From the NCBI GenBank assembly GCA_045540695.1, contig JAZQHR010000103.1:5346-69345 (forward strand): a stretch of DNA of 64,000 nucleotides. Direction: 5' to 3'. Each line of letters begins with the position of its first letter. Position 1 is the first letter of the stretch. This DNA is from Clostridia bacterium (GTDB lineage: Bacteria > Bacillota > Clostridia > UMGS1810). Made by a program: the position numbers and the translations under genes. Below are positions 2,307 to 43,883 of this stretch, piece after piece. The notes under the pieces were generated by a model that was not told the DNA's origin, searched no databases, and saw only the letters and a program-made list of their open reading frames with translations.

Positions 2307-2364
2307 AAATTTTGTAGAAAAATATGAAATTAAATGGAGAATAATGTATTAGAAGGAGGTGAAA

Positions 2365-3600
2365 ATGGTGAAAGTGGAACGTGTTGAACAGCATCATATT
2401 AAGCTTGATACTGACTTTGGGAGACACATAGACTCTTATTGTTTTAAGTCCAAAAATCTTTATAACTACGCTAATTATATTGTAAGAGAAACTTTTATTG
2501 AAAATAATGAATGGATTAGATACAACAAATTATTTGAATTGGTAAAAGATTCAGAGCCGTATAAAGATATTGGAAGTAATGTAGGACAGGCAACATTGCG
2601 AATGTTAGATAAGGCATGGAAGTCATTCTTTGAGAGTGTTAAAGATTGGTCGAAGAATCCAAGTAAATATCTTGGCAAACCGAAACTCCCCAAGTACAGA
2701 AACAAAGACGGACGATATGTTTTGGTTCTCGACAGTAATAAAGTAAAACTGAAAGACGGTTATGTATATTTTGCGTGGAAACCATTTAAGCCATTCAATA
2801 ATCGCTTCAAGACTAATGCAAAAGAGAGAATAATACAATGTAGGTTTATTCCGAAAGGCAGTGGATATACGATGGAGGTAGTATATGAAACTGAAGCTCC
2901 AGATTGTTTAGATGCTTCTGAAAGAGTTGTTGCAATCGATGTAGGAGTTGATAACTTCGTAACTATGGTAAATAACATAGGCATAAAGCCTATTGCTATT
3001 AAAGGCGGAGTGATTAAATCTATCAATCAATATTACAATAAGAAAAATGCAAAAATTCGCTCAGAGTTAGCAAAAATCAATAAGATGAATTGGTCAAAAA
3101 GACTACAAAATCTTAAAGATAAAAGGTTTGAAATGATTAAATATCATATGCACTGTATCAGCAAATATGTGGTTGATTGGTGTGTGTTGTATGATATAGA
3201 CACGATTATAGTAGGACATAACAATAATTGGAAACAAGAACAATTAGGCATGCAAAATTTCACTTATATCCCATATGAACTATTTTTACATATGTTAAGT
3301 TACAAAAGTGAAAATGTAGGTATTAAATGCGTTATGAATGAAGAATCATATACATCGGGCACATCGTTTCTTGATTGCGAAGAACCTTGTAAAGAGAATT
3401 ATAACAAAGAGAGACGAGTACATAGAGGGTTGTTTGTTAGTAACAAAGGAATAAAAATCAACGCAGATGTTAATGCTGCATATCAAATTATGAAGAAGGT
3501 ATTCCCGGATGTATTTTCGGACGGGGTAGAGGGTGTAGGTTTACACCCAACGATTATCAATTTTGGTAACGTAAATGGCACGAAAGTGTCAATAAATTAG
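2365..3600 (+). CDS. tnpB: IS200/IS605-family TnpB (OrfB) RNA-guided-endonuclease-like protein
   Basis: N-terminal OrfB-type region (GKPKLPKYRNKDGRY). RuvC-I-like VVAIDVGVDNFVT, EESYTSGTS, C-terminal KINADVNAAYQIMKK. SD aaggagg 2353-2359 gives ATG 2365; the ORF track starts at GTG 2359. Confidence 0.8.
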   Translation: MVKVERVEQHHIKLDTDFGRHIDSYCFKSKNLYNYANYIVRETFIENNEWIRYNKLFELVKDSEPYKDIGSNVGQATLRMLDKAWKSFFESVKDWSKNPSKYLGKPKLPKYRNKDGRYVLVLDSNKVKLKDGYVYFAWKPFKPFNNRFKTNAKERIIQCRFIPKGSGYTMEVVYETEAPDCLDASERVVAIDVGVDNFVTMVNNIGIKPIAIKGGVIKSINQYYNKKNAKIRSELAKINKMNWSKRLQNLKDKRFEMIKYHMHCISKYVVDWCVLYDIDTIIVGHNNNWKQEQLGMQNFTYIPYELFLHMLSYKSENVGIKCVMNEESYTSGTSFLDCEEPCKENYNKERRVHRGLFVSNKGIKINADVNAAYQIMKKVFPDVFSDGVEGVGLHPTIINFGNVNGTKVSIN

Positions 3601-5497: not shown

Positions 5498-6010
5498 ATG
5501 AAAGAAATTCCTTATTATAAAAAATATGCAAGAGAAGTTATTACTGAATTAGTCAAATATGATGATGAGGATATAATTCGTAAGTTTGTTAGCGAAATAT
5601 CCAAACTAAGTACACTCAAACCATACTGTAACAACCACAAGAAACCAACTGTGAGAACCGTTGTTAAACCAAAGACAATAATGTCCAATTCCGAAGCTTT
5701 TCCAGACATTCTTGAATCATACAAGAAATCAACATACGTTTGCTCGTCGTGTGGCAAAATTATTTTTCCTGAGGTAGAAATTGCAGATGGCAACATCAAT
5801 CTTCATTCTGAGAAAAATAACTATCTTGGTAAGGGCGGTAGGATTATTCGTGATAATATCTGCCCTGACTGTAAGTTGTCAGTCAAAGGGTTTAAGGACA
5901 ATGTGATTAAAGAATTGCCTAATGGATATATTGGATGTTTAAGATGTGGAACAGTGTTTGACGCAGGTAGAGATTGTTGTCCCGGATGCAAGCAACCGAG
6001 ATATTATTGA
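5498..6010 (+). CDS. Hypothetical phage protein with multiple zinc-ribbon motifs
   Basis: CSSCG, CPDC, CLRCG and CCPGC pairs in the C-terminal half. SD gaggag upstream. Confidence 0.5.
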   Translation: MKEIPYYKKYAREVITELVKYDDEDIIRKFVSEISKLSTLKPYCNNHKKPTVRTVVKPKTIMSNSEAFPDILESYKKSTYVCSSCGKIIFPEVEIADGNINLHSEKNNYLGKGGRIIRDNICPDCKLSVKGFKDNVIKELPNGYIGCLRCGTVFDAGRDCCPGCKQPRYY

Positions 6011-6049
6011 TACCCAATAAAACAAGTCTTTCAAGTGGAGAGAAGATAT

Positions 6050-6289
6050 ATGAAGAAATTTAAAATAAAATTTAACGACTTTAACTGTTTGAAATGTTCG
6101 GGTCGATTATACATAAAAGAAATTTATAAAAAATTGCAAGAACAGTATGAACCAAATGCTGGTGCTAATGGATATCTTTCTATTTTAATATCTGAGTGCA
6201 AGTGTGGTCAAAAGCATAAGATATATTGCGAATGTCACGAAATAAATGAGAATATAACAGTTTGCATTAATAGAATTATAAAAATATAA
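6050..6289 (+). CDS. Hypothetical Cys-rich phage protein
   Basis: SD ggagag then ATG 6050 (the track starts at GTG 6035). CLKCS...CKCG...CECH motifs. Confidence 0.45.
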   Translation: MKKFKIKFNDFNCLKCSGRLYIKEIYKKLQEQYEPNAGANGYLSILISECKCGQKHKIYCECHEINENITVCINRIIKI

Positions 6290-6300: not shown

Positions 6301-6477
6301 ATGCCAACATATATACATGAATGTCCTGAACATGGTGAAGTAGAAGTGGACTGCAAAATATCAGAAGCTACTGAAATAAAACCTTGCCCAATATGTGGCA
6401 AGGATAGCAAAAGAGTTTATGGTGTTAATGCAATTCAATGGAAATGCGATGGAGCTTTTGGTAAAAGCACAAAGTAA
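6301..6477 (+). CDS. Small zinc-ribbon protein, FmdB-like (58 aa; below the ORF-track cutoff)
   Basis: My translation is MPTYIHECPEHGEVEVDCKISEATEIKPCPICGKDSKRVYGVNAIQWKCDGAFGKSTK. SD aaggaga lies just upstream of the ATG. It fills an otherwise unexplained gap in a tightly packed operon. Confidence 0.55.
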   Translation: MPTYIHECPEHGEVEVDCKISEATEIKPCPICGKDSKRVYGVNAIQWKCDGAFGKSTK

Positions 6478-6491: not shown

Positions 6492-6698
6492 ATGCTTGAA
6501 ACAATTGATGAAACAAAAGTAAAAATACCAAAGGGTCAAACAATAATGGAGGTTCATTATAAAGAAGGGATTCCTAAATTTTTAATTACTACAAACGTTA
6601 TTAGAGATAAATACTACCTATATAAAATATCGAAAGATTACGTTTTAGAAAAATTAGAAACATCAAACATTCCTAAGTTTAAAAGGAGAACAATATAA
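6492..6698 (+). CDS. Hypothetical phage protein
   Basis: SD-like agagggg upstream. No recognisable motif. Confidence 0.45.
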   Translation: MLETIDETKVKIPKGQTIMEVHYKEGIPKFLITTNVIRDKYYLYKISKDYVLEKLETSNIPKFKRRTI

Positions 6699-6892
6699 TG
6701 TGTGAAGTATGCTTGAGAACACCATGTCATCCTAGATGTCCTAATGCTAAGGAATCAAAGATAGTTGGGGAATGCAAGCATTGTGGCGAACCAATATATG
6801 ACGGGAGCGAATATTGGACTGACGATGACAACAACATCTATGAATCAAGAGTATGTGCTGAACTTTATTATGGGATAAGACAGATTGATTGA
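6698..6892 (+). CDS. Hypothetical Cys-rich phage protein
   Basis: TAATG coupling to the upstream gene. CEVC...CHPRC...CKHCG motifs. Confidence 0.5.
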   Translation: MCEVCLRTPCHPRCPNAKESKIVGECKHCGEPIYDGSEYWTDDDNNIYESRVCAELYYGIRQID

Positions 6893-6902: not shown

Positions 6903-7484
6903 ATGAACAAAAGATTAAAAAAATTTTTAATAGCTATTGGTATTATGCTAATAATTCTTTTATTAGGCACAATGGCTTATGCCAATAGCTATAAACAGAA
7001 GATAGACAAAGAAATTGTTAATATAGAGAGTAAGCAAGAAAAGATTCACAATATAGCAGACGAAGTGCGAGAACTGAATCTTGATAATGAAACGGAAATT
7101 ATTACAAGTTTAAAACGTGCTTGGCATAATTTTGATAGTCAAAAACAGCTTTTAATAGAAAAGCGTGAAAAACTAGACAATATATTAAATTTTAATATAT
7201 TTGAAATATCTGCTTATTGTGGTGAGAATTATCACCATATATGCAACAACGGTAATGCAAGAACTACCGCAACGGGGACAGTTCCAACTGCAGGGCGAAC
7301 TGTTGCGGTAGATCCTAATGTCATCCCTTATGGTTCTACTGTAATTATTGGAGGCAATGAGTACATAGCAGAGGACACTGGCGGTGCGATTAAAGGTAAT
7401 AAAATTGACATATTTTTTAATACACATGCTGAAGCATTGCAATGGGGTAGACGCAACATGGAAGTTTATATAGTTAGAAATTAA
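6903..7484 (+). CDS. 3D-domain (MltA/YuiC-like) cell-wall-active protein with N-terminal membrane anchor
   Basis: TM segment FLIAIGIMLIILLLGTMAYA. C-terminal TATGTVPTAGRTVAVDPNVIPYGSTVIIGGNEYIAEDTGGAIKGNKIDIFF matches the 3D-domain signature. Confidence 0.8.
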   Translation: MNKRLKKFLIAIGIMLIILLLGTMAYANSYKQKIDKEIVNIESKQEKIHNIADEVRELNLDNETEIITSLKRAWHNFDSQKQLLIEKREKLDNILNFNIFEISAYCGENYHHICNNGNARTTATGTVPTAGRTVAVDPNVIPYGSTVIIGGNEYIAEDTGGAIKGNKIDIFFNTHAEALQWGRRNMEVYIVRN

Positions 7485-7500
7485 GAAAGGAGCAATTGAT

Positions 7501-7833
7501 ATGGTCGAACAAAGATGTGCTATGTGTGGGGTAATTATTCCTGAAGGCAGAATGATTTGTCCTTTATGTGAAAATATGGAGCCAAGCTTTGATACTGTTA
7601 AAATTATAGTAAAGCTTGATAAGATTGCGGATATATCAGAATTTGTTAATTTGGCATCTAAATGTAGCGATGATGTAACGATTGGTTCAGGTAGATTTGC
7701 AGTTAATGCAAAATCAATCATGGGGTTGTATAGTTTAGATTTGACTAAACCATTACACGTAGAATTTTACGGCGATATACCTTATGAGGTTAAAGAAGGT
7801 ATGAAGAAGTTTATTGTAGGAGAACAATGTTAA
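7501..7833 (+). CDS. Zinc-ribbon fused to an HPr/Crh-like domain
   Basis: N-terminal CAMCG...CPLCE. Residues about 33-100 parallel HPr (ASKCSDDVTIGSGRFAVNAKSIMGLYSLDL versus HPr ...[12 protein letters not shown]...). The Ser46-equivalent is kept; no His at the His15 position. Confidence 0.55.
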   Translation: MVEQRCAMCGVIIPEGRMICPLCENMEPSFDTVKIIVKLDKIADISEFVNLASKCSDDVTIGSGRFAVNAKSIMGLYSLDLTKPLHVEFYGDIPYEVKEGMKKFIVGEQC

Positions 7834-8763
7834 TGGGTACATATAGACAATTAGGTGGTGGTGCGTTTTTACAAAAACCATCGTCTACTACGTGGATATA
7901 TAATACAATTAACCAAGGAAAAACATTACCACCTACGTTTAGATTATGGGATTCGCCTATAAAAAATCAATTATCTAAAAGTACATGCGTGGCTCACGCT
8001 TTGGCAAGTGCTATAGAGATTTTACAACACTATGACACCGGTAGTAGAGAAATAATATCTACTAGTTGGTTCTATGGATATAGAGAAGTGGATGACCATC
8101 AACAAGAAGGCATGTATATTTTAGAAGCTTTAGATATGGCAAGAAAAATAGGTGGTGTTCCTAAGTCATTGATGCCTGACAATTTGGGATATCATGAAAG
8201 CCGTAAAATAATACAAGAAATGAAAGATGTCTGCCTAAATGTTTCTTCAAAGTATAAAATTAGAAATTATGCTTCAATAGAAAAGCCAGAAATAATGATG
8301 GGGGATATATGAGAATAATTCGCCAGTAATTATCGGCATGACAGTATATGATTCATTCCTTAATGTTGATAGTACAGGCATTCTGCCAGTTCCAAAAAAG
8401 ACCGAGAAAAGTTATGGTGGACATGCAGTGCTATGTACTGGGTGGACTACCATAAACAACGAAATATATTTGGTTATTAAAAATTCATGGGGAGAATATT
8501 GGGGAGATAATGGATATGCGTATATGAAATTATCAGATGATATGCCTATATATGAAATGTACATTATTTACGATGAAACCGACAATCCGCTATGTTTGAC
8601 GGATATAGTAGGTCATTGGTGCGAAGAAGACACTAAACTTGCAATAAGATGCGGAATATTAAATGGCTACGAAGACAAAACATTTAGACCTGACAACTAT
8701 ATAACAAGGGCAGAGATGTCATCTATTGTTGCAAAATTATTAAGAAAAACGACGATGTATTAA
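7827..8763 (+). pseudogene. Papain-like (C1) cysteine peptidase with C-terminal SLH domain, split by a frameshift in a G5 run
   Basis: ORF 7827-8312 has the Q...C block (IKNQLSKSTCVAHALASAIE). ORF 8338-8763 has the His block (GGHAVLCTGW), the Asn block (IKNSWGEYWGDNGY) and an SLH motif (IVGHWCEEDTKLAIRCGILNGYEDKTFRPDNYITRAEMSSIVAKLL). The second frame is open from 8299. Removing one G from ggggg (8300-8304) joins the frames. Confidence 0.75.
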
Positions 8764-8946: not shown

Positions 8947-9579
8947 ATGAAAATAAAAACAAAATTCAATTGGATATCCAACGATTGGAAAAGAATAAAA
9001 AATCATTGTCGAACAACAGATAATAAAGATTTTACCGAGAACGAAGCAACTGAGATATTTAAGAAAAAACTACTCATATCTGAGCATTCGCCAATTCGTC
9101 TTTTGGAATTCGATTGGTCATGGAAATCAATATATTATTGGCTTAGTACCGAGTGGTCTCGTCATAAATTTGAAAAGTTCATTAGTAGCCAGAGAGATGA
9201 CAGACTAAAAGACGATACACCAAGAGGTGAAAAACCTCAAAACGCATTAGTTGATTTTGATGGTTATGCCAATATGCAAAACCTGATAGATGCTTGGCGT
9301 AAAAGATTATGTAGGGCAGCAACAGACGAGGCGAGAGAGTTGGCTGAAGACTTTAAAATAGAGTTACATAAAACGCATCCTTTAGAATCTGATGTGCTTG
9401 TTCCAAACTGTATATATAGGGCAGGTTGCCCTGAGTTTCATTGCTGTAGCTATATAGGCAAGTTTATAAAGTGGGCAAAAGATAATAATAAAGATATTCC
9501 TTGGTTAGACATTCAGGGAAGATATGACTTATACAATGAATATTTTTACCAAGAAAAGGAGAAATCAAATGACAGATAA
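8947..9579 (+). CDS. Divergent ThyX-like (flavin-dependent thymidylate synthase family) protein
   Basis: SEHSPIRLLEFDWSWKSIYYWLSTEWSRHKFEKFISSQR parallels the ThyX core (GHeS.lEh..ftf.i.giSr....ql.RHRxxxxxxxSqR). The later NLIDAWRKRLCRAATDEARELAEDF parallels the R....AqwEir block. The size (210 aa) fits. Confidence 0.45.
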   Translation: MKIKTKFNWISNDWKRIKNHCRTTDNKDFTENEATEIFKKKLLISEHSPIRLLEFDWSWKSIYYWLSTEWSRHKFEKFISSQRDDRLKDDTPRGEKPQNALVDFDGYANMQNLIDAWRKRLCRAATDEARELAEDFKIELHKTHPLESDVLVPNCIYRAGCPEFHCCSYIGKFIKWAKDNNKDIPWLDIQGRYDLYNEYFYQEKEKSNDR

Positions 9580-9850
9580 AATTGAACAACATAAAAAGAT
9601 ATGCCTTCAACTTAATGAGACATATTCTAAAAAAAATCATGACTACGGAGATTCATTCGGTGAAAGTATTAACGAGTGGGGGATTATTTCGGCAGCAACA
9701 CGAATTTCTGACAAATATAACAGATTTAAATCTCTTGTTAAAATTTCAAATAATAATCGCTTAGTTATTGATGAATCATTGGGGGATACATTATTAGACA
9801 TGGCTAATTATTGCATCATGACATATATGGAGTTGAATGGGGATGAATAA
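9569..9850 (+). CDS. DUF1599-like all-alpha protein (nucleotide-metabolism-associated)
   Basis: KKNHDYGDSF...ISDKYNRFKSL...DESLGDTLLDMANYCIM resembles the DUF1599 pattern as I recall it. SD aaaggag gives ATG 9569 (the track starts at 9524). Confidence 0.3.
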   Translation: MTDKIEQHKKICLQLNETYSKKNHDYGDSFGESINEWGIISAATRISDKYNRFKSLVKISNNNRLVIDESLGDTLLDMANYCIMTYMELNGDE

Positions 9851-10427
9851 AATATTTATAGTTGACGATAGCGAAGGTATATTTTCTAACACAATAGGAA
9901 AATACATACCAACCCTTAAATGTTCAATATTAGACCTTCCTAAAGAAGCCGCTAAGGTTTTAGGTTGGGATGGTGATAAGACCGAAAAAGACAGACGATT
10001 TTTAAGTGACATTATGGGTTTGTCAACGGATTATAACGATGCACCATTTAAGGATGTATTGTCACTTGTAACAGATTTTAAGAACAACAAAGATTATGCC
10101 GAATACAAAGTTTTGATTATAGATATGAGAGACCCAAAAGATATTGCTCGTGCCGTTAAAACATTTGGTGCCGACACAATTCTCATCCGCAATCCTAATG
10201 TTAAAAAAATTAATAGCAATCATGCAGATAGAGATGTTGAAAATTATGAATATGACTACATAATAGAAAATAACGGCACACTTGAACAACTCGATGAAGT
10301 TGCAAAAAGATTTGTAAATTATATAAAGAATCATGATAATCAAAAATTCCCATCGGATGCGTATTGTTTGATTAGTCATAGTGGTAAAAAAACAATAGTG
10401 TTTGAGTGCAACAAGATGTTGAGGTGA
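9837..10427 (+). CDS. Phage dNMP-kinase-like protein lacking a Walker A motif
   Basis: The C-terminal two thirds (RRFLSDIMGLSTD, VLIIDMRDPKDIARAVKTFGADTILIRNPN, NHADRDVENYEYDYIIENNGTLEQL) resemble T5-type dNMP kinases from memory. The N-terminus reads IFIVDDSEGIFSNT where GxxxxGK[DTS] is expected. Confidence 0.35.
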   Translation: MGMNKIFIVDDSEGIFSNTIGKYIPTLKCSILDLPKEAAKVLGWDGDKTEKDRRFLSDIMGLSTDYNDAPFKDVLSLVTDFKNNKDYAEYKVLIIDMRDPKDIARAVKTFGADTILIRNPNVKKINSNHADRDVENYEYDYIIENNGTLEQLDEVAKRFVNYIKNHDNQKFPSDAYCLISHSGKKTIVFECNKMLR

Positions 10428-10431
10428 GGAT

Positions 10432-10869
10432 ATGAAGAACTATGTTATATACACCTGTGGAGGTATGGGAAAGTTTGGTAAAGAAAACTTTAATGAAGGA
10501 AACAGTTGGCGATTACATTGTAAAAAGTCTCTTGAAAACTATGATTGCGATTACAAAGTCAAAGTTATAAACCCAAATGACTTTTTTAATTTTATTGACG
10601 AACCGCCACAATATAAAACACAATCTGAAGTTATGAATTTAGATTTGCATAAACTTCGCAATTCCGACTTAGTTATTGCAAACTTTAATGATATGTATTC
10701 TTTGGGTTCAATGGCAGAAATCGCAATAGCCTATGAAAGAAAGATTCCGGTTATCGGTCTTGATATAAATAATCAACATCTTCGCCCTTGGCAAATTGAA
10801 ATGACTGAAAGAATTTTTAACGATATTGATGAAATGCTTGATTATATTCAAAATTTTTATTTAAGATAA
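10432..10869 (+). CDS. Nucleoside 2-deoxyribosyltransferase-like protein
   Basis: Rossmann-like VIYTCGGM start. DLHKLRNSDLVIANF...SLGSMAEIAIAYERKIPVIGL matches the NDT/Rcl-family Asp...Glu pattern. Confidence 0.5.
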   Translation: MKNYVIYTCGGMGKFGKENFNEGNSWRLHCKKSLENYDCDYKVKVINPNDFFNFIDEPPQYKTQSEVMNLDLHKLRNSDLVIANFNDMYSLGSMAEIAIAYERKIPVIGLDINNQHLRPWQIEMTERIFNDIDEMLDYIQNFYLR

Positions 10870-10883
10870 TGGAGAATAATTAT

Positions 10884-11033
10884 ATGGAAGCAAAATTTAA
10901 CTTTGATGATTTCTACAAACAGTTAACCGAAGATGAGCAGCAAATATGTGACTTGTGTAGAGATTTGAATATAGGTAAATGCGAGAAATGCGAGTTTGTT
11001 TTTCGCTTTGCTTCTAAAAAAGATAGGAGGTAA
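10884..11033 (+). CDS. Small Cys-rich ORF (49 aa; below the ORF-track cutoff)
   Basis: My translation is MEAKFNFDDFYKQLTEDEQQICDLCRDLNIGKCEKCEFVFRFASKKDRR. SD ggaga lies upstream. It ends 3 nt before the next start. Confidence 0.4.
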   Translation: MEAKFNFDDFYKQLTEDEQQICDLCRDLNIGKCEKCEFVFRFASKKDRR

Positions 11034-11036
11034 ATT

Positions 11037-11243
11037 ATGAGCGTTGTATTATACACTATTGATTGTCCCAAATGTCTTGTACTAGAAAAAAAGCTTAAAC
11101 AAAAACAAATACCATTTGTAAAAGTTTCTGACCAAGAAATTCTTGTAGCAAAAGGATTTGGAGACGCACATTTTCCAATACTTGAAGTAGACGATGTAAG
11201 AATGGAGTATAGAACATCAATTGAATGGCTTAATAATATATAG
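11037..11243 (+). CDS. NrdH/glutaredoxin-like redoxin
   Basis: 68 aa. VVLYTIDCPKCLVLEKKL has the CxxC at the start of helix 1 typical of the thioredoxin fold. It sits immediately upstream of nrdD. Confidence 0.6.
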   Translation: MSVVLYTIDCPKCLVLEKKLKQKQIPFVKVSDQEILVAKGFGDAHFPILEVDDVRMEYRTSIEWLNNI

Positions 11244-11255
11244 GAGGAAACGATA

Positions 11256-13193
11256 TTGGAAATAAACATTAAATTGAACAAAAATTTTACAACCCAATAC
11301 AACAAACTACAGGCTGAATACGGCACGGATATTGCTCGCATAAACGGGTTTGACGATGGACAGTTGAGCTACACAGATTTTTTGGATAACTTTGTGGCAG
11401 AAACAACGGTTGCAGATGCAAGTATAGATGGCAATAGTAATGTTGGACATAAAGATATTGTGACTCTTGAAAAAGAGATGCCGAAACCTCATGAAAAACT
11501 AATAGCATTCAATAAAATATATCTTGAAATTCAAAAGAAATATGGATTTCAAGCTGCGAATGAATGGCTTAGGGCAGAATGGGTTGGTGAGTTATATATG
11601 CATGATGCAAATACCACAAGTTTTAAACACTACTGTTTTGCCTATGACCTAAAAGACCTCGCTGAAAAAGGACTGTATTTTATAGAAGGAAGAAATGCAG
11701 AGCCAGCACAACACCTTACAACTTTCGTTGATTTTGTAAAAGAATTTATAAGTTATGCAAGTAACCGTAGTTCTGGTGCCGTAGGGCTACCTAATCTTAT
11801 TCCATATATGTTTTATTTTTGGAAAAAAGATATAAACAACAATCATTTTCCAAAAAGTCCTGAATATTATGCAAGACAGGAATTTCAGAGATTTATTCAT
11901 GCGGTAAACCAGCCATACGTAAGAGATGGTTCACAATCTGCGTTCACAAATACATCTGTTTTTGATAGACCATATTTTGAGGCACTATTTGGCGGAGCAG
12001 AATTTCCTGACGGAACATTTATGATTGATTATGAAGAAGAAATTATTGAATTTCAGAAATGGTATATGGAAGTGATGGCTGAAATTCGCCATAAGAATAT
12101 GTTCACGTTTCCAGTAAGCACAATCAGTTTGCTAAGAAAGGATGGCAAGTTTGTTGATGAAGATTTTGCGAAATGGGCAATTAAGCATAATATACAGTGG
12201 GCTGATAGCAATCTTTTTATTGACACAACTGTTAATTCATTATCTAATTGTTGCAGATTAAAAAGTAATATCGAAGACTTAGGTTATTTTAATTCCATTG
12301 GTGGAACGGCTTTAAAGGTTGGTTCTGTAAAAGTATCCACTGTAAACCTAGCTAGACTTGCACTCGACACTAAAACAGAAGATGCTTATATAGAAGAACT
12401 TAAAAAACGTGTGTATATAAATCTTATTGCTCTCGATAGTGTTAGATACATAATAACACGAAATGTTGAGAAAGGTTTGCTACCTAATTTCAAGTACGGT
12501 CTTGTAGATTTTGAACACCTTTATAACACCATAGGTTTTATCGGAATATATGAAACAATGAAGAAGTTTAAATATGTCGAAGTTGATGAGTTTGGTAATA
12601 CATATTATACCGAAAAAGCATCTGCTTTTGGAGAGAGAATTTTTAAGACAATGAGAGAAGTGGCTGATGAGTTTATTAAAGAGAACAACTGCGATTATCA
12701 AATAAATACTGAACAGATTCCGGGTGAATCGGCAGCAGCTAAACTTATGAAAAAAGACAAGTTCTTTTATCCTAGGGCAAAGATTTACGACTTGCCTTTA
12801 TATGGTAACCAGTTTATACCTTTAGGTATTAAAACAACAGGGCAAGAACGTGTAAGAATTGCATCAGAATTTGATGGATATTGTTCTGGTGGCTCAATAC
12901 TCCACTATAATATTGACGCACCATTCGATTCTTTTGAAAAAGCTTGGAAGATGGTTAATTACATAGCAGATCAAGGAGTAACATATTTTGCGTTCAATAC
13001 AAAAATTCAAGCTTGTATTAATAATCATGCTTTTTATGGTAAAATTTGTCCAACGTGTGGAAATCCAGTTTCTACAGAATTCAGCAGAATTGTTGGTTTC
13101 TTCACACCTGTAAGAACATACTCGAAAGAACGAAAAGCAGAATTCGACCTTAGAGAATGGGCAGACACCAACGCCGAAACAGAAAGAGTTTGA
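11256..13193 (+). CDS. nrdD: Anaerobic (class III) ribonucleoside-triphosphate reductase
   Basis: LSNCCRLKS thiyl-loop motif. C-terminal Zn site CINNH...CPTCGN followed by the glycyl-radical motif SRIVGFFTPV. 645 aa, TTG start after SD ggagg. Confidence 0.9.
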   Translation: MEINIKLNKNFTTQYNKLQAEYGTDIARINGFDDGQLSYTDFLDNFVAETTVADASIDGNSNVGHKDIVTLEKEMPKPHEKLIAFNKIYLEIQKKYGFQAANEWLRAEWVGELYMHDANTTSFKHYCFAYDLKDLAEKGLYFIEGRNAEPAQHLTTFVDFVKEFISYASNRSSGAVGLPNLIPYMFYFWKKDINNNHFPKSPEYYARQEFQRFIHAVNQPYVRDGSQSAFTNTSVFDRPYFEALFGGAEFPDGTFMIDYEEEIIEFQKWYMEVMAEIRHKNMFTFPVSTISLLRKDGKFVDEDFAKWAIKHNIQWADSNLFIDTTVNSLSNCCRLKSNIEDLGYFNSIGGTALKVGSVKVSTVNLARLALDTKTEDAYIEELKKRVYINLIALDSVRYIITRNVEKGLLPNFKYGLVDFEHLYNTIGFIGIYETMKKFKYVEVDEFGNTYYTEKASAFGERIFKTMREVADEFIKENNCDYQINTEQIPGESAAAKLMKKDKFFYPRAKIYDLPLYGNQFIPLGIKTTGQERVRIASEFDGYCSGGSILHYNIDAPFDSFEKAWKMVNYIADQGVTYFAFNTKIQACINNHAFYGKICPTCGNPVSTEFSRIVGFFTPVRTYSKERKAEFDLREWADTNAETERV

Positions 13194-13195
13194 AG

Positions 13196-13657
13196 ATGAA
13201 GATTAAGGGTCTTATAACCGAAGACTTTGTAAACTATAAAAAGGTATCTATGACAATAATGTTCCCGCACTGTGACTTTAAATGCAGTGCGGAGCATTGT
13301 CAAAATAGTCCTTTAGCAAAGGCAAAAACATATGATATAGACATTGATAAAACAGTTGAAAAATATCTAAACAACCCTATAACAGAAGCGGTAGTGATGC
13401 AAGGACTTGAGCCGTTTGATTCATGGTCAGATTTAGTAAAATTCATAGCCAAATTGAGAGAAAAATCACGAGATGATGTTGTAATATACACGGGTTATAA
13501 TAAGGCTGAAATTGCCAATAAAATCGATATTTTAAAGCAATACAAAAATATAATAATTAAATTCGGAAGGTTTATTCCAAATCAAGAAAAACATTATGAC
13601 GAAGTGCTTGGTGTATACTTAGCATCAGACAATCAATATGGAGAGGTAATAAGTTGA
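13196..13657 (+). CDS. nrdG: Anaerobic RNR activating protein (radical SAM)
   Basis: MFPHCDFKCSAEHC Cys cluster near the N-terminus. Position directly after nrdD. ATG 13196 lies 3 nt after the nrdD stop (the track starts at 13157, inside nrdD). Confidence 0.75.
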   Translation: MKIKGLITEDFVNYKKVSMTIMFPHCDFKCSAEHCQNSPLAKAKTYDIDIDKTVEKYLNNPITEAVVMQGLEPFDSWSDLVKFIAKLREKSRDDVVIYTGYNKAEIANKIDILKQYKNIIIKFGRFIPNQEKHYDEVLGVYLASDNQYGEVIS

Positions 13658-13836
13658 AGATTAGACTATCAGAAGATAAAGATTTAGTAGAAGAAATTAA
13701 GCAAAAACTAAAAGATAATGGTGGTTTTTGCCCGTGTAGATTAGAAAAAACTCCTGATACAAAATGTCCATGTAAAGAATTCAAAGAACAAGACAAGTCA
13801 GGAGAGTGTCATTGTGGGCTTTATATTAAAGAATAA
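13654..13836 (+). CDS. Mini ferredoxin:thioredoxin-reductase catalytic-subunit-like protein (CPC-CPC-CHC)
   Basis: GGFCPCRLEKTPDTKCPCKEFKEQDKSGECHCGLY carries all six Cys of the FTR catalytic motif. The TTG start overlaps the nrdG stop (gTTGA); SD ggagagg lies upstream. Confidence 0.55.
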   Translation: MKIRLSEDKDLVEEIKQKLKDNGGFCPCRLEKTPDTKCPCKEFKEQDKSGECHCGLYIKE

Positions 13837-13858
13837 TATGTCGACAGGAGATATTAAA

Positions 13859-14302
13859 ATGCTAGAAATGAATATAAATATTAAGAAAAATACTAATACA
13901 GCAATAATACCAAAAAGAGAAACAATCGGCTCTGCGGGAGCTGACTTATCAGCAGATATAAACGAACCTGTATTAATAAGACCACATGAAACAGTTAAAA
14001 TTCCAACAGGTATATCTATTGAGTTGCCTGAAGGAACATTTGGCGCTATTGTTGCAAGAAGTGGGTTATCTACTAAAGAAGGTTTACGCCCTGCCAACTG
14101 TTTTGGTGTAATAGATGAAGATTATAGAGGTAATTGTGTAGTTGCATTACATAATGATAGTGATGAAACAAGAATTGTTGAGCCAAATCAACGCATAGCA
14201 CAACTTATAATTATTCCATATATAGCAGCCAATTTTGTAGAAGTTAAAGATTTATCAGAAACAGACAGAGGCAAAGGCGGTTTTGGTAGTACAGGAAAAT
14301 AA
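13859..14302 (+). CDS. dut: dUTP diphosphatase (phage copy)
   Basis: GSAGADL, ARSGLS, IDEDYRG and C-terminal RGKGGFGSTGK motifs. SD aggag gives ATG 13859. Confidence 0.9.
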   Translation: MLEMNINIKKNTNTAIIPKRETIGSAGADLSADINEPVLIRPHETVKIPTGISIELPEGTFGAIVARSGLSTKEGLRPANCFGVIDEDYRGNCVVALHNDSDETRIVEPNQRIAQLIIIPYIAANFVEVKDLSETDRGKGGFGSTGK

Positions 14303-14743: not shown

Positions 14744-15802
14744 ATGTATGATGCAAGTATAAAAAAAAGAAAAGATGGTAGACTCGAAATGCAAATAGTC
14801 GTTGGAGTTGATGATAACGGAAAAAGAGTTAGAAAATCTTTTTACGGACATTCTGAAAGAGAGGTGAAGAAAAAAAGAGACAAGTGGGTAAAAGAAACCA
14901 ATATATATAAAGAGCTTAAAGTTGGCAAAACAGACGCCTTTTCATCGTGGGCAGACATTTGGCTGGAGACATACAAAAAACCTGTCGTTAGACCATACAC
15001 ATATGAAAACACATATAGAACACGCGTCGAAAAGTATCTTAAACCTTATTTTAAAAATCGAGATTTAAATGCAATTACCCAAAAAGATATTCAGGATTTT
15101 TTTAACTCTCATAAAGAAGTGTCTACGGCTTTGCTTAAAACGTTAAGAATAATTTTAAAAAATATATTTGACAAAGCGATCATTAATGACTTGTGTTCGA
15201 AAAATCCAGTTAATGATATCAAACTATCATCAAATTACGAAGAAAAAGAAAGACAGGCTTATAACGCTAAACAACAACGATTAGCAATTCAATGGGCTAT
15301 GGATAACAACAAAACCGATATTCTTATAGCTTTAAAAACCGGAATTCGAAGAGGAGAATTGTTTGGATTGCGATGGAATGATGTAGATTTGAAAAATAAA
15401 ATAATATATATTAATCAATCTATTAGTCCAAAAGTAAAAGGTGTGGAAGAAATTGATACAAAATTAAAATCTAAATCTAGTAAACGAGCGATACCTATAG
15501 ATAATGAACTTGTCGAATGGCTTTCGTTTTTACCAAATGAAAATGAACGACTTTTTGACTCTCCATCGGTAGATGCTTTTGCGAAGAAAATAAATAAATC
15601 TTTGAAACAAATGTCTAAGGATTGTAATATACCAAGTTTAACACTACACGAATTAAGACATACGTTTGGAACTGTATTGAGAGAAAATGGAGTTGATATA
15701 TATTCAATTTCAAAACTAATGGGACATTCAAGCGTTGCAGTAACAGAAGCAATTTACGTTCATAATGATATAGAAGTGCTGCGCCGTGCAATGCGTATTT
15801 AA
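14744..15802 (+). CDS. int: Tyrosine site-specific integrase (phage integrase family)
   Basis: C-terminal catalytic region: GIRRGELFGLRWNDV (Arg), HELRHTFGT (H-x-x-R), LMGHSS...Y. Adjacent to the tRNA fragment. Confidence 0.9.
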   Translation: MYDASIKKRKDGRLEMQIVVGVDDNGKRVRKSFYGHSEREVKKKRDKWVKETNIYKELKVGKTDAFSSWADIWLETYKKPVVRPYTYENTYRTRVEKYLKPYFKNRDLNAITQKDIQDFFNSHKEVSTALLKTLRIILKNIFDKAIINDLCSKNPVNDIKLSSNYEEKERQAYNAKQQRLAIQWAMDNNKTDILIALKTGIRRGELFGLRWNDVDLKNKIIYINQSISPKVKGVEEIDTKLKSKSSKRAIPIDNELVEWLSFLPNENERLFDSPSVDAFAKKINKSLKQMSKDCNIPSLTLHELRHTFGTVLRENGVDIYSISKLMGHSSVAVTEAIYVHNDIEVLRRAMRI

Positions 15803-15882: not shown

Positions 15883-15941
15883 TTGGAAATGCTGTGAACG
15901 TTCAAAGCGTTCCGAGGGTTCGAATCCCTTCCTCTCCTCCA
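15883..15941 (+). tRNA. 3' fragment of a type-II (long-variable-arm, probably Ser-type) tRNA; att-site remnant, not an intact gene
   Basis: T-arm gaggg-ttcgaat-ccctt (15914-15930), acceptor 3' strand cctctcc, then tCCA (to 15941). 7-bp variable arm gaacgtt-caa-agcgttc (15896-15912). No matching 5' acceptor strand (ggagagg), D-arm or 5' anticodon-stem strand upstream. Confidence 0.5.
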
Positions 15942-15950
15942 TAAACAAAA

Positions 15951-15976
15951 AGCATCCTTTAAAGGATGTTTTTTTG
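15951..15976 (+). terminator. Rho-independent terminator after the tRNA fragment
   Basis: agcatcct-ttaa-aggatgtt hairpin followed by a T7 run. Confidence 0.7.
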
Positions 15977-16175
15977 TTTTGTATTATTCATTTTTCATTA
16001 TTCTTTTAATGTGACAGGATTTTTTAATGAATAATGAATGATGAAGCCGCTACGCTTATGAATAATTAATAATTATGGTAGCTTTGCTTATACAATACTT
16101 TTTTATTAAAGGTCGCACTAATTTATTTTATTTACATATATTTTAAAATATGATATAATAATATAAAAGTTTAAC

Positions 16176-16190
16176 TCAACTAATAGTTGA
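16176..16190. promoter_or_regulatory. Perfect 7-1-7 palindrome TCAACTAATAGTTGA; candidate operator upstream of the HTH-serine dehydratase gene
   Basis: tcaacta-a-tagttga. The half-site AGTTGAT recurs at 16226-16232 and, upstream of the second HTH fusion, at 20411-20417. Confidence 0.3.
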
Positions 16191-16284
16191 TAATATTTAT
16201 ATAAAATATTTCATAAAACATTTATAGTTGATAGAATTTCACTTATAATAGTATAAAATGGTAAATTTTATGAGGTGAAAAAAT

Positions 16285-17715
16285 TTGAACGAATTTAGAT
16301 ACGAAAAGATTAAAGAATTAAGACGGAAAAATAATATGTCGCAAAAACTTCTTGGAGAGATGCTGGGGATAAGTGATCGTGCAGTTTCTAAATGGGAAAC
16401 AGGGCTTTCTCAGCCGTCAGGTAAAAATCTTATTTCTATGTCAAAAATATTTAACGTACCGGTTGAGTACTTTTTAAATATTTCTGAAAGTAGCAAACAT
16501 ATAAAAAAAGAAAAAGGTATGGAGTCTATAACAGAGCTATACAAGATAGGCAGAGGTCCGTCAAGTTCTCACACCATTGGTCCTGAAAAAGCTTGTGTGA
16601 TATTTAAAGATAAATATAAAGATGCTGATAAATTTAAAGCTATACTTTATGGCTCACTTGCTAAAACAGGCAAAGGACACGGAACAGATGTCGTTATAAA
16701 GAAAACATTTTCACCTTATGAATGCAGTATAGAGTTTGATTATACAAATGCTGATATTCCTCATCCAAACACTATGGAGCTTATAGCGTACTCCAAAAAT
16801 AAAGAATTATGCAGAGAAAAGGTGTTCAGCATTGGCGGAGGAAGCATAGCTTTTGAAAACGATGTTATAACACCGCCTGAAAGGATATATGCACTTGACA
16901 AGTTCAGCGACATATCCGACTACTGCGAGGAAAAAGGTATTCGTATATGGGAATATGCTCTTGAAAACGAGGATGACAATTTTATCGACTATATGCATAA
17001 AATTTGGGAAGCTATGAAAACATCAGTCAAAAATGGACTTACTGACACAGGTTTACTTCCCGGCGGACTTGATGTTCAGAAAAAAGCAAAAGTATTATAC
17101 AACAGTCAGCACATAGATGAAACCAATGAAACACGTGAAAACCGCATAGTTTGTTCGTATGCATTTGCGGTTGGTGAGCAAAATGCATCGGGCGAAAAGA
17201 TAGTTACTGCACCAACCTGCGGTGCGGCGGGAATAGTTCCGGCGGTGCTTTTGTATCAGCAGCAAAAGAATAATTTCAGCGATGAAAGCATCGTTCATGC
17301 ACTTATGACTGCGGGTATAATGGGAAACCTTATCAAGACAAATGCATCTATATCGGGTGCAGAATGTGGCTGTCAAGCAGAGGTTGGAAGTGCATGTGCG
17401 ATGGCGGCAGCGGCATTGGCGGAGCTTTTTGGACTTTCGATTGACAAAATCGAGTATGCGGCTGAAATTGCTATAGAGCATCATTTAGGTCTTACCTGCG
17501 ACCCTATATGTGGTCTTGTGCAGATACCTTGCATAGAGAGAAATGCCGTTGCGGCAATGCGTGCTATAAATGCAGTAAACCTTTCAAGCTTTCTATGGGA
17601 TACCAGAAAGATTTCGTTTGACAAGGTTGTGCAGACTATGAAAGAAACGGGCGAAGATATGCATGTTTCATACAAGGAAACCTCAGAGGCGGGACTTGCG
17701 AAGATAAATATATAA
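16285..17715 (+). CDS. XRE-family HTH domain fused to an iron-sulfur L-serine dehydratase (single-chain type)
   Basis: Residues 1-64 are an XRE HTH (MSQKLLGEMLGISDRAVSKWETG). From M79 the sequence is MESITELYKIGRGPSSSHTIGP (the SdaA N-terminal signature), then TAPTCGAAGIVPAVL, and the Cys ligand contexts ECGCQAEVGSA, LTCDP and IPCIERNA. Confidence 0.8.
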   Translation: MNEFRYEKIKELRRKNNMSQKLLGEMLGISDRAVSKWETGLSQPSGKNLISMSKIFNVPVEYFLNISESSKHIKKEKGMESITELYKIGRGPSSSHTIGPEKACVIFKDKYKDADKFKAILYGSLAKTGKGHGTDVVIKKTFSPYECSIEFDYTNADIPHPNTMELIAYSKNKELCREKVFSIGGGSIAFENDVITPPERIYALDKFSDISDYCEEKGIRIWEYALENEDDNFIDYMHKIWEAMKTSVKNGLTDTGLLPGGLDVQKKAKVLYNSQHIDETNETRENRIVCSYAFAVGEQNASGEKIVTAPTCGAAGIVPAVLLYQQQKNNFSDESIVHALMTAGIMGNLIKTNASISGAECGCQAEVGSACAMAAAALAELFGLSIDKIEYAAEIAIEHHLGLTCDPICGLVQIPCIERNAVAAMRAINAVNLSSFLWDTRKISFDKVVQTMKETGEDMHVSYKETSEAGLAKINI

Positions 17716-20491: not shown

Positions 20492-22111
20492 ATGACAATA
20501 GGTGAAAAAATCTCACAGCTTAGATTGTCTAAAAATATTTCTCAGGAACAACTCGCAGAGAAAATTTCTGTTTCAAGACAGTCGGTATCAAAGTGGGAGA
20601 TGGACCAGGCACTACCACAAATAGATAAGGTGCTTCAATTATGCGAATTATTTAATATATCAACTGATGATCTATTACAAGATAAAATTGCATTAAAGCA
20701 AAATACAAATAAGGATTTTTGCCATAACAAATATTTTGGTACTGATGGCTTCAGGGGTGAAGCAAATGTTAACCTGACATCTTTTCAGGCGTATAGGGTA
20801 GGTAGATTTTTAGGCTGGTATTACTCTTCTGAACTTTCAGGTTGCACTAAAGCAGGGTATAGACCAAGAATTGTAATAGGAAAGGATACCCGACGTTCAA
20901 GCTATATGCTGGAATATTCTATTGTTGCAGGCATTACTGCATCAGGTGCAGATGCATATATGCTTCACGTTACTACAACGCCAAGTGTGTCGTATGTTAC
21001 ACGCCAGGATGAGTTTGATTGTGGTATTATGATTACTGCATCACACAATCCATATTACGATAATGGCATAAAAATTATAAACAAATATGGCGAAAAGCTT
21101 GATGACAAAACGACCGCACTTATCGAAAGTTATATCGATGGAGATTTAAATATACTTGGTGTTTTGGAAGATGATTTACCTCTTGCGTGTCGGGAAAAAA
21201 TAGGTTGTATTGTCGATTATGTTTCGGGTAGAAACAGATATGTCGGATACCTTATTTCACTTGCATCAAATTCATATAAAAACCTAAAAATAGGTCTTGA
21301 CTGTGCAAATGGTGCATCGTGGATGATTGCAAAATCAGTGTTTGGTGCACTTGGTGCTCAAACCTTTGTTATTGGTGCTGAACCGGACGGATTAAACGTA
21401 AATAGCGGATGCGGTTCAACACACATTGAAAATTTATGTAAGCTTGTAAAAGAAAAACATCTAGACTTAGGTTTTGCATTTGACGGGGATACTGACAGAT
21501 GTATTGCCGTCGACGGAAATGGTAACGTTGTAGATGGCGATGCTATGATGTATATACTTGCTAAACGTCTAAAATCGCGTGGTATGCTTAATAATGACAC
21601 AGTTGTTGCTACTATAATGTCAAATAGCGGACTTATTTCAAGTCTTGAAAAAATAGGTATAAAATGTGAGCAGACAACAGTTGGTGACAGATTTGTGTAT
21701 GAATGTATGCAAAACAATGATTACAGTCTTGGCGGTGAGCAATCAGGACATATCATATTAAAGAAATATGCTACCACTGGCGATGGATTATTAACAGCTA
21801 TAATGATTACCGAGGAAGTTTGTGATAGTAAAATGTCACTTTCTGAACTTGCAAGTCCGGTAAAACTATATCCTCAATACACCATAAATGTTCGTGTAAA
21901 GGATAAATCAGCAGTTTTAGCTGATGGAGAAGTAATATCTTCATTAGAAAGTGTAAAAAATCTTATTGGTGATAACGGAAGAGCACTTCTTAGACAGAGT
22001 GGAACAGAGCCTGTAATAAGAATTATGATAGAATGCGAAAATGAGAGTAAGTGCGTAGAATACGCAAATGTTATTGCAGATAAGATAAGCGAAAGGGGAC
22101 ATAACGCTTGA
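20492..22111 (+). CDS. glmM: XRE-family HTH domain fused to phosphoglucosamine mutase
   Basis: Residues 1-64 are an XRE HTH (ISQEQLAEKISVSRQSVSKWEMD). From residue 79 the sequence is NKYFGTDGFRGEAN (the GlmM N-terminus without its Met), then TASHNPYYDNGIK (phosphoserine loop), GFAFDGDTDR (metal loop) and GGEQSGH. Confidence 0.85.
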   Translation: MTIGEKISQLRLSKNISQEQLAEKISVSRQSVSKWEMDQALPQIDKVLQLCELFNISTDDLLQDKIALKQNTNKDFCHNKYFGTDGFRGEANVNLTSFQAYRVGRFLGWYYSSELSGCTKAGYRPRIVIGKDTRRSSYMLEYSIVAGITASGADAYMLHVTTTPSVSYVTRQDEFDCGIMITASHNPYYDNGIKIINKYGEKLDDKTTALIESYIDGDLNILGVLEDDLPLACREKIGCIVDYVSGRNRYVGYLISLASNSYKNLKIGLDCANGASWMIAKSVFGALGAQTFVIGAEPDGLNVNSGCGSTHIENLCKLVKEKHLDLGFAFDGDTDRCIAVDGNGNVVDGDAMMYILAKRLKSRGMLNNDTVVATIMSNSGLISSLEKIGIKCEQTTVGDRFVYECMQNNDYSLGGEQSGHIILKKYATTGDGLLTAIMITEEVCDSKMSLSELASPVKLYPQYTINVRVKDKSAVLADGEVISSLESVKNLIGDNGRALLRQSGTEPVIRIMIECENESKCVEYANVIADKISERGHNA

Positions 22112-25289: not shown

Positions 25290-26234
25290 ATGAAAAAACA
25301 TAGTTTTAGTGTTAATTTAAGTGAAATTATAAAAGAATTTCACCTAAATGTATTAAACGAAATTGAAAATTATGAAAATATTAAAATAGTAAATAATGAA
25401 ATTAACAGACCAAGCCTTCAGATTGCAGGTTTTTTCGATTATTTTGATAATACAAGACTGCAAATAATCGGTATGGTTGAAACAACTTATCTACAAAGGC
25501 TAACAAGCGAAAAACGTACCGAAGCACTTGAAGCACTTTTTAAAACAAATATTCCTGCAATTATAGTATCGAGAGGAATTACTCCGTCTGCAGAACTTAT
25601 AGAGCTTGCTACAAAATATAATACACCTGTTCTTCAAACCAGTGAGTCTACATCGAGATTTGTCAGCGGTCTTATAGCATATCTAAATCTTATGCTTGCA
25701 GAACGAGTAACAATGCATGGCGTATTTGTCGAAGTATACGGCGAAGGAATACTCATCCTTGGTGATAGTGGAGTAGGTAAAAGTGAAACTGCAATAGAGC
25801 TTGTAAAAAGAGGTCACAGACTTGTAGCTGATGATGCAGTTGAGATAAAAAAAGCATCAAACAAAGCACTTGTAGGCAGTGCTCCTGCAATTATTCGACA
25901 TTTTATCGAGCTAAGAGGCATCGGTATAGTAGATGTTAAGAGAATATTTGGTATGGGTGCTGTAAAAGATACCGAAAAGGTTGATATGGTTATTAACCTT
26001 GAACTATGGGAAGACCATAAACAGTATGACAGATTAGGTATTACTACTGAATACACTGATATTCTTGGTATAAATGTACCTGCTCTTACAATCCCTGTTA
26101 AACCAGGTAGAAACCTAGCTATGATAGTTGAAGTTGCTGCTATGAATAACAGACAAAAACGTATGGGTTATAACGCTGCAGAAGCACTTAATAATAGACT
26201 AATGAGTGAGATGGAGGGTGGTGCAGAGTTGTAA
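25290..26234 (+). CDS. hprK: HPr kinase/phosphorylase
   Basis: GDSGVGKSETAIELVKRGHRLVADD and IELRGIGIVDV signatures. Confidence 0.9.
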   Translation: MKKHSFSVNLSEIIKEFHLNVLNEIENYENIKIVNNEINRPSLQIAGFFDYFDNTRLQIIGMVETTYLQRLTSEKRTEALEALFKTNIPAIIVSRGITPSAELIELATKYNTPVLQTSESTSRFVSGLIAYLNLMLAERVTMHGVFVEVYGEGILILGDSGVGKSETAIELVKRGHRLVADDAVEIKKASNKALVGSAPAIIRHFIELRGIGIVDVKRIFGMGAVKDTEKVDMVINLELWEDHKQYDRLGITTEYTDILGINVPALTIPVKPGRNLAMIVEVAAMNNRQKRMGYNAAEALNNRLMSEMEGGAEL

Positions 26235-43537: not shown

Positions 43538-43883
43538 GCGAGCAAGCCGGATAGTCGCATGTATAGTGCCGAAAGGCCGTACATGAGGAAAGTCCGAGCA
43601 TCATAGGGCAGGGTGCCGGGTAACGCCCGGTGGAGGCGACTCTAAGGATAGTGCAACAGAAAAAAACCGCCGTTTTTTAACGGTAAGGGTGAAAAGGCGA
43701 GGTAAGAGCTCACCGTGGGCTGGGTGATCAGTCTGACGTGTAAACCCCACTTGATGCAACACCGTATAGAGAGGAATATATGTTGGCCCGACATTCCTCG
43801 GGTAGGTGGCTTGATATGTGCAGTAATGTACATACTAGATAGATGGCTATTCAAGACAGAACTCGGCTTATAGACTTGCTCGC
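43538..43883 (+). ncRNA. rnpB: RNase P RNA (bacterial, type B)
   Basis: P1 pairing gcgagcaag (43538-) with cttgctcgc (-43883). Universally conserved GAGGAAAGTCCGAGC and ACAGAACTCGGCTTA blocks. GGTAACGCC and GTGCAACAGAAA are present. Confidence 0.9.

Follow-up and report, generated by a model that had tools for sequence, protein, structure and literature searches.

The window analyzed here, a stretch of 64,000 nucleotides from contig JAZQHR010000103.1 of a Clostridia bacterium (UMGS1810), contains the right-hand 15.8 kb of an integrated phage-like element. Within this part of the element lies a gene for a 110-residue protein related to HPr, the phosphocarrier of the phosphotransferase system (PTS) for sugars. 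Judged by its sequence, the protein belongs to a large group of loop-truncated, histidine-less mini-HPr proteins, although unlike the typical standalone members of 72–83 residues it bears an extra 30-residue zinc ribbon.

The 110-residue protein and its HPr-like domain

The open reading frame (ORF) at 7501–7833 is a genuine gene, maintained by strong purifying selection. Searching 5.8 billion proteins returned 257 relatives; among the best 120 of these, most are 100–110 residues long and none carries an informative name. Pairwise ratios of nonsynonymous to synonymous substitution (dN/dS) against 8 homologues range from 0.06 to 0.20, with synonymous sites close to saturation, and 25 positions are invariant across 30 diverse members. 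An antisense ORF at 7185–7721 (178 residues) was dismissed as spurious, since two conserved genes on the plus strand overlap it. No meaningful family was returned by a PHROGs search for the 110-residue protein or for most of its small neighbors, and a look-up among public contigs gave no record of the protein itself.

The gene product is predicted to be a cytoplasmic protein of two parts, an N-terminal four-cysteine zinc ribbon followed by a mini-HPr domain. The initial annotation, a model's reading of the letters made without database searches, had described an N-terminal CxxC...CxxC ribbon, and the cysteines are indeed present with the spacing C-x2-C-x10-C-x2-C (C6/C9 and C20/C23). They are nearly invariant in homologues: C20 and C23 occur in all 118 close homologues and C9 in 116, whereas C6 occurs in 109, which is every one that covers the position, the other nine beginning later. 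The match of this region to Pfam DZR_2 is weak (16.2 bits versus a cut-off of 27), and the AlphaFold2 (AF2) confidence for residues 1–30 is moderate (block means of 76, 84, and 68).

The C-terminal domain is predicted to have the HPr fold, with HPr positions 19–63 alone being recognizably homologous. Pfam PF00381 (PTS-HPr) matches residues 46–87 at E = 4.3e-6 and 27.1 bits, above its gathering score of 23, over profile positions 19–59 of 81 only. The HPr models of NCBIfam score far below their cut-offs, with 19.8 bits versus 47.9 for TIGR01003 and 22–24 bits (one at 23.8) versus 110–123 for NF010354 and NF010352. Searching PDB sequences with phmmer retrieves HPr and Crh chains only, at E = 0.02–1.7 (Crh chains at 0.07–0.09). 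Conversely, tblastn with Bacillus subtilis HPr against the 64-kb window gives the ORF at 7501–7833 as its sole match (E = 0.002, 44% over 36 residues), and no second HPr-like gene was found there by this search. When the family is aligned with HPr, Crh, and Escherichia coli HPr by hhalign, the reported probability is 96% and the aligned columns correspond to HPr 19–63 only. An AF2 model built from 30 homologues has a mean predicted local distance difference test score of 81.7 and runs beta-alpha-beta-beta-alpha-beta-alpha through residues 32–104 (strands 32–37, 59–63, 66–69, and 85–90; helices 45–52, 73–77, and 95–104). All of the top 41 Foldseek matches of this model in the PDB are HPr, Crh, or NPr, with a probability of ~1.0 and a template-modeling score of ~0.6 normalized by target. 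The profile search and structure prediction that had been proposed as checks on an HPr-like domain at residues ~33–100 both return HPr-family matches, a similarity beyond chance.

The missing active-site turn and the conserved Lys-Ser face

Positions were mapped by adding 26 to the HPr number, which places His15 at K41 and Arg17 at A43. The regulatory Ser46 corresponds to Ser72, whose codon (tca) occupies 7714–7716, preceded by that of Lys71 at 7711–7713; both this codon and the KSIMG alignment agree with the serine context first described. The only histidine in the protein is H86, and residues 33–71 are free of histidine, as had also been stated. The loss goes further than His15. The segment carrying His15, Arg17, and Pro18, which joins strand 1 to helix A, fails to align with HPr or Crh, and matches begin at HPr position 19–20 throughout, in Pfam searches of the 110-residue protein and of nine relatives as well as in hhalign. 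In standalone relatives, strand 1 begins at residue ~3, versus residue 2 in HPr, and the conserved serine lies at residue ~41, versus 46 in HPr. By this alignment, the strand-1/helix-A turn appears to be about 3–5 residues shorter than in HPr and nonhomologous to it. Because the whole turn is shorter and does not align, the claim is stronger than the absence of His15 and sets the protein apart from Crh.

Column statistics for 141 representatives from 50%-identity clusters give the same picture for the group. The position-15 equivalent is T, S, K, N, or D, and the position-17 equivalent is N, E, A, D, or S. The most conserved columns are the Lys-Ser pair and helix B: the Lys45 equivalent is lysine in 140 of 141 representatives, the Ser46 equivalent is serine in 139 of 140 (one threonine), and the Gly49 equivalent is kept in 135 of 140. 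The equivalents of Ile47 and Met48 are also retained. Among the 118 close homologues of the 110-residue protein, K71 and S72 are each kept in 117, and its NAKSIMGL motif matches the one in Crh exactly.

Since the His15/Arg17 turn is absent, the sequence indicates that the 110-residue protein cannot act as a PTS phosphocarrier, either by accepting phosphate from Enzyme I or by passing it onward to sugar transporters. An HPr fold that lacks the acceptor histidine and keeps the helix-B hydrophobic patch could instead block the PTS, binding Enzyme I or EIIA without taking up phosphate and thereby shutting PTS sugar uptake. Recognition by Enzyme I and EIIA depends chiefly on the His15 turn and on the opening turns of helix A, Arg17 among them. 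These recognition parts are missing or nonhomologous here, which makes a PTS blocker highly improbable.

The same turn bears on the proposal, made in the initial annotation, that the protein mimics Crh, with HprK/P phosphorylating Ser72 and the phosphoprotein serving as a CcpA co-repressor that changes catabolite repression. Parts of this proposal stand: the fold is that of HPr, the element is phage-like, the K-S-I-M-G context is kept with the NAKSIMGL sequence of Crh, His15 is absent, and the host has HprK/P. Bacillus crh sits in a whiA-crh context, whereas the HPr-like gene lies outside such a context, and the whiA gene of the window (28871–29803) precedes an epimerase-like gene. On HPr, the surface that CcpA contacts comprises helices 1 and 2 and the turn between strand 1 and helix 1; Ile47, Met48, and Met51 lie in its hydrophobic core, and Arg304/Lys308 of CcpA bind Ser46-P (PMC10287919). 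Binding to CcpA also involves a contribution from His15 (PMC3526391). Of these contacts, Ile47 and Met48 are retained, but Met51 is replaced by Phe/Tyr, and the turn is nonhomologous and shorter, with no equivalent of Arg17. The NCBIfam HPr/Crh models also remain far under their cut-offs (23.8 versus 123; 19.8 versus 47.9). The absence of the defining turn of Crh and of Arg17 weakens a Crh-style co-repressor role, which we regard as improbable.

To delimit the group, a family profile was searched against 1.84 billion representatives of 50%-identity clusters, giving 2524 matches at E ≤ 1e-3 and 161 representatives, mostly standalone, at E ≤ 1e-10. With two HPr-part-only matches excluded, the first 12 representatives (E ≤ 1e-23) match the whole profile including the zinc ribbon; nearly all remaining listed matches are proteins of 72–83 residues that match the HPr part only. 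A C-x2-C...C-x2-C pair is present in 10 of 148 representatives examined. The stretch in which the acceptor would lie is free of histidine in 125 of the 138 motif-bearing representatives among these 148, and in the other 13 the histidines are scattered. The group signature reads S-G-[RK]-[YF]-x-[VI]-[DN]-[AG]-K-S-[IL]-[ML]-G-x-[FY]-S-L-D-L-[ST]-K-P, and residues 63–84 of the 110-residue protein, SGRFAVNAKSIMGLYSLDLTKP, conform to it. One candidate, P0291 (1666 residues with 14 "stretches"), was rejected as a low-complexity artifact.

A locus scan covering one genome per GTDB species yielded 134 loci, 80 of which were retained. The fusion is encoded in four of these 80 loci and the remainder encode standalone proteins, in Flavonifractor, Pseudoflavonifractor, Lawsonibacter, Intestinimonas, Ruminiclostridium, Eubacterium, [Clostridium] fimetarium, and many metagenome-assembled genomes (MAGs). 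The zinc-ribbon fusion is a small, phage-associated sub-branch, an offshoot of a chromosomal histidine-less group that is widespread in Clostridia. Other architectures include a tandem double mini-HPr of 157 residues (P0210) and a protein of 187 residues with a different cysteine-rich N-terminal region before the mini-HPr domain (P0307). No informative domain fusion was found elsewhere in the group, where we saw zinc-ribbon-type or unassigned N-terminal extensions, the P0210 duplication, and likely gene-call artifacts.

Names in public databases follow the fold. Standalone genes are called "HPr family phosphocarrier protein" or "HPr domain-containing protein" in NCBI and UniProt. The histidine-less entries P0121, P0151, and P0181 bear the former name by machine annotation despite lacking the phospho-accepting histidine, and a viral homologue in BFVD, A0A8S5PSI8, is misnamed "Catabolite control protein A".

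Phage and chromosomal settings

Features of the window and of comparison loci are collected in Table 1. The element in the window runs from a RecD-like helicase through an IS605-type TnpB, small cysteine-rich ORFs, the 3D-domain gene, the HPr-like gene, the C1 peptidase/SLH gene, and a nucleotide-metabolism block to the integrase. The 3D-domain gene and the HPr-like gene are separated by a 16-nt gap and are likely co-transcribed, judging from their spacing; the same order is found in loci L089 and L090. Downstream, the C1 peptidase/SLH gene is frameshifted (frames 7827–8312 and 8338–8763). Its counterpart in L089 is intact and encodes 309 residues; by comparison, the window carries a single extra base close to a G-run at ~8300, so that the gene is either a pseudogene or affected by a homopolymer sequencing error. 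Within the nucleotide block, NrdD, DUF1599, the NrdG-like protein, and dUTPase pass their Pfam cut-offs, and ThyX, the dNMP kinase, and the deoxyribosyltransferase score just under theirs. The G+C content is 33.5% in the element and in the host part alike, and no Rfam element lies near the HPr-like gene within the window. The IS605/OrfB-type TnpB (2359–3600), which has a Cas12f-like TNB domain, is an insertion that separates the RecD-like helicase from the small-ORF block. The small ORFs upstream of the 3D-domain gene (5498–6010, 6035–6289, 6301–6477, and 6698–6892) contain C-x2-C motifs, and the ribbon that is now joined to the HPr-like domain may have come from them.

A phage-borne status of the 110-residue protein is supported by the gene content around its relatives. 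Like the gene in the window, close homologues head a nucleotide block in elements ending with an integrase or serine recombinase (L001, L002, and L089), and the block recurs in variant form after the homologue in L001, L002, L085–L087, and L089. On an IMG/VR contig (L086), genes for a phage DNA polymerase and for a DnaB-like helicase accompany the homologue. Standalone versions with 35–45% identity are present in virulent Enterocloster bolteae phages of ~100 kb; the copy in Enterocloster phage PMBT24 (WDQ45469) is annotated "phosphocarrier protein HPR". Another standalone version lies on a 68-kb IMG/VR contig (L087), and BFVD holds three gut-virome proteins of the same fold, including A0A8S5S213. 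The statement that no phage example had been described holds for the literature as covered by full-text searches, which turned up no work on HPr-like proteins of phages or on histidine-less HPr in Clostridia; the HPr-like gene also goes unmentioned in the paper on the PMBT24 genome. It does not hold for sequence records, since those of PMBT24 and the three BFVD gut-virome entries are deposited. In L089, the closest long contig, the dUTPase gene (15898–17237) is split by an HNH_3 endonuclease ORF (fragment, HNH, fragment), which suggests insertion of a homing endonuclease or intron.

In four separate phage lineages, the mini-HPr gene has as its immediate neighbor a gene for an exported, peptidoglycan-hydrolase-like protein, and the hydrolases belong to two unrelated families. 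A 3D-domain neighbor occurs in the window, L089, and L090, with a 3D-like one in L050 (BLASTP E = 3e-6). A Hydrolase_2 (SleB/CwlJ-type) neighbor precedes the mini-HPr gene in PMBT24 and CB473P1 and follows it in L087. A 3D-domain gene is also found a few kilobases downstream in the same block in L001, L002, L003, and L005. This adjacency may reflect a functional link or an inherited module order. It is the chief evidence for an alternative in which the HPr fold has been reused for a purpose unrelated to HprK or carbon control, as a small adaptor or regulator for adjacent cell-wall or nucleotide-metabolism enzymes. In that case the Lys-Ser-helix B face would serve generic binding or structural needs, with the zinc ribbon contacting nucleic acid or protein. 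The 7-nt overlap with the C1 peptidase/SLH gene and the ThyX and/or NrdD block downstream in most phage-context loci examined fit such a role. HPr-family proteins are moreover known to bind many unrelated partners, as E. coli HPr does with Rsd and glycogen phosphorylase, and both are among the Foldseek PDB matches. However, the neighboring hydrolases bear signal peptides or membrane anchors and the mini-HPr has none, and chromosomal members adjoin mtaB rather than hydrolases or nucleotide genes; the exception is the chromosomal locus L028, with a 3D-domain gene 0.5 kb downstream. The phages may also hold the module in common by descent, so a common gene order is weak evidence. Reuse of the fold is a serious alternative, although on balance an unlikely one.

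In chromosomes, the mini-HPr gene is divergent from a MiaB/MtaB-type methylthiotransferase gene (mtaB) in about 55 loci/species of Oscillospiraceae, Ruminiclostridium, and relatives; Ruminiclostridium has two tandem copies. The upstream regions contain clear sigma-A-like promoters (TTGACA-17-TATAAT), which point to vegetative, housekeeping-type expression of the chromosomal genes. A sporulation link, suspected from the SleB-type and 3D-domain neighbors in phages, is unsupported given these promoters. The leaders are ~80 nt long and match no Rfam family, riboswitch or other known RNA. Across Flavonifractor and Pseudoflavonifractor, a leader motif, TTGTACAGA, is conserved, and in Flavonifractor-type leaders it is preceded by a short GC-rich hairpin.

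The hprK gene of the host was correctly placed in the initial annotation and is identified by the Pfam domains given in Table 1. Among named relatives, the closest (~70% identity) come from MAGs of Ruminococcaceae/Oscillospiraceae, and hprK lies in the order dapdh-hprK-PHP-glucokinase-murB-whiA, ~9.5 kb past the integrase of the element. Because hprK is a housekeeping host gene beyond the element, its presence in the same window, which had been offered as support for the Crh proposal, implies no functional link. Two other host genes, at 16285–17715 and 20492–22111, carry in-frame N-terminal helix-turn-helix domains of XRE type: in the pair are L-serine dehydratase (beta + alpha) with an HTH_3 domain at residues 9–63 and the phosphoglucosamine mutase GlmM with an RstR-like domain at residues 1–71. 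These are either unusual fusions or the result of missed stop/start signals. The host part also contains a bacterial RNase P RNA of class A (43539–43886, 294 bits).

Table 1. Positions of the HPr-like gene, its parts, and associated genes (window coordinates unless a locus is named)
Feature	Position	Strand	Basis or remark
Coding sequence, 110-residue zinc-ribbon + mini-HPr protein	7501..7833	+	ATG start; listed ORF, homologues, dN/dS
Shine-Dalgarno AGGAG	7488..7492	+	Read from sequence; 8 nt before ATG
Putative four-cysteine zinc ribbon, N-terminal, C6-x2-C9...C20-x2-C23	7516..7569	+	Cysteine conservation
Predicted HPr-fold domain, residues 32–105	7594..7815	+	AF2 elements, Foldseek, Pfam PF00381 (residues 46–87)
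Turn D40-K41-I42-A43-D44 in place of HPr turn I14-H15-A16-R17-P18; no His or Arg	7618..7632	+	Offset HPr + 26
Lys71-Ser72-Ile-Met-Gly-Leu-Tyr-Ser, equivalent to HPr Lys45-Ser46 + helix B; candidate regulatory/phosphorylation site	7711..7734	+	Alignment to HPr/Crh KSIMG
3D-domain protein (MltA-like cell-wall enzyme), N-terminal membrane/signal segment	6903..7484	+	Pfam 3D E = 2e-20; upstream neighbor
Papain-family (C1) peptidase with SLH domain	7827..8763	+	Downstream neighbor; start overlaps HPr-like stop by 7 nt
Nucleotide-metabolism block: ThyX-like, DUF1599, dNMP kinase-like, nucleoside deoxyribosyltransferase-like, NrdD, NrdG-like, dUTPase	8947..14302	+	Pfam
Tyrosine integrase, right end of element	14744..15802	+	Pfam Phage_integrase + SAM-like N-terminal domain
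Host hprK (HPr kinase/phosphorylase), outside element; candidate partner	25290..26234	+	Pfam Hpr_kinase_N, Hpr_kinase_C
Hydrolase-like neighbors	window 6903–7484; L050 5866–6330; L083 7506–7952; L087 8427–9161; L028 11006–12076
Example chromosomal loci (among L009–L082)	L034 9886–10300; L051 9842–10240; L012 9413–10216

Possible function and relation to known systems

We tentatively favor, at somewhat less than even chances, a reading in which the 110-residue protein is a noncatalytic ligand that acts through its Lys-Ser/helix-B face, with HprK/P as the likeliest partner, and so biases host carbon signaling. The Lys45-Ser46 pair with helix B is the only HPr surface that selection has kept nearly unchanged, which argues for action via that face as the contact surface. 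NAKSIMGL, being identical to the motif of Crh and typical of HPr that is phosphorylated by HprK, likewise points to the HprK/P of the host, which the protein might engage either as an alternative substrate or by competing with HPr. Whether serine-phosphorylated or not, the protein may in addition bind to one of the regulators or enzymes that normally act as readers of HPr(Ser-P). Such readers include CcpA, MalR, and, in Faecalibacterium, FruR (PMC11906611), so the downstream reader need not be CcpA. Expression from a phage block for replication and nucleotide metabolism would bias carbon signaling in the host during infection or lysogeny, and the zinc ribbon would provide a second contact or stabilize the small domain.

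Several observations weigh against a ligand of HprK/P. The second kinase subunit in the HprK/P-HPr crystal structure of Fieulaine and co-workers from 2002 reportedly touches HPr near the start of helix A, which by alignment is altered in the 110-residue protein. In the mini-HPr group, the equivalents of Met51 and Gly54 are Phe/Tyr and Asp, respectively. The genes that recur beside it serve the cell wall and nucleotide metabolism rather than carbon metabolism, and members of the group are known from sequence and machine annotation alone. Vibrio HPr keeps Ser46 although the organism is without HprK/P (PMC10287919); conservation of Ser46 is therefore no proof of phosphorylation, and a structural role or another partner is possible.

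A broader view, which we consider rather unlikely, is that a histidine-less HPr look-alike, captured by phages of gut Clostridia, serves them as a decoy or pseudo-substrate for HprK/P or for readers of HPr(Ser-P), resetting catabolite signaling, and that the chromosomal mini-HPr genes form an unrecognized third branch of HPr/Crh in Oscillospiraceae and relatives. HPr serine phosphorylation is the central switch by which Firmicutes, abundant gut anaerobes among them, control their use of carbon, and a phage protein that engages this switch would, if the idea is true, be a new kind of host-takeover factor. Members of the group occur in the cultivable species Flavonifractor plautii and in the isolated virulent phage PMBT24, so the idea is directly testable. 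Apart from any function, hundreds of entries named as HPr family phosphocarriers cannot carry phosphate on histidine and make up a coherent, strongly conserved group with a near-invariant Lys-Ser.

Among known systems, HPr itself (PtsH; PF00381/TIGR01003) shares with the 110-residue protein the fold and the homologous core of HPr 19–63, and the Pfam gathering score is passed. In contrast to HPr, the protein is without the His15/Arg17 turn (G-[IL]-H-[AT]-R-P) and stays far under the NCBIfam cut-offs. Bacillus Crh, a regulatory paralogue of HPr rather than a phosphocarrier, resembles it in having the HPr fold, no His15, and Ser46 in the N-A-K-S-I-M-G-L context. Crh has a full-length G-L-Q-A-R-P-A turn with Arg17, whereas the corresponding turn here is unaligned, shorter, and devoid of arginine. 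Overall similarity to Crh is low (phmmer E = 0.07–0.09), a zinc ribbon has been added, and the setting differs, being a prophage in this case and the vicinity of mtaB for the chromosomal relatives. Because the defining turn of Crh is absent, the protein is not a Crh orthologue and is at most Crh-like, as a non-phosphocarrier paralogue of HPr. Its nearest counterparts are the standalone mini-HPr proteins, such as those of F. plautii and Pseudoflavonifractor capillosus (81 residues), WDQ45469, and A0A8S5S213, which align over residues ~37–107 with 38–56% identity and have the group signature and the short turn without a conserved histidine. They differ in having no N-terminal zinc ribbon; those encoded in chromosomes are of housekeeping type, and all are machine-annotated only.

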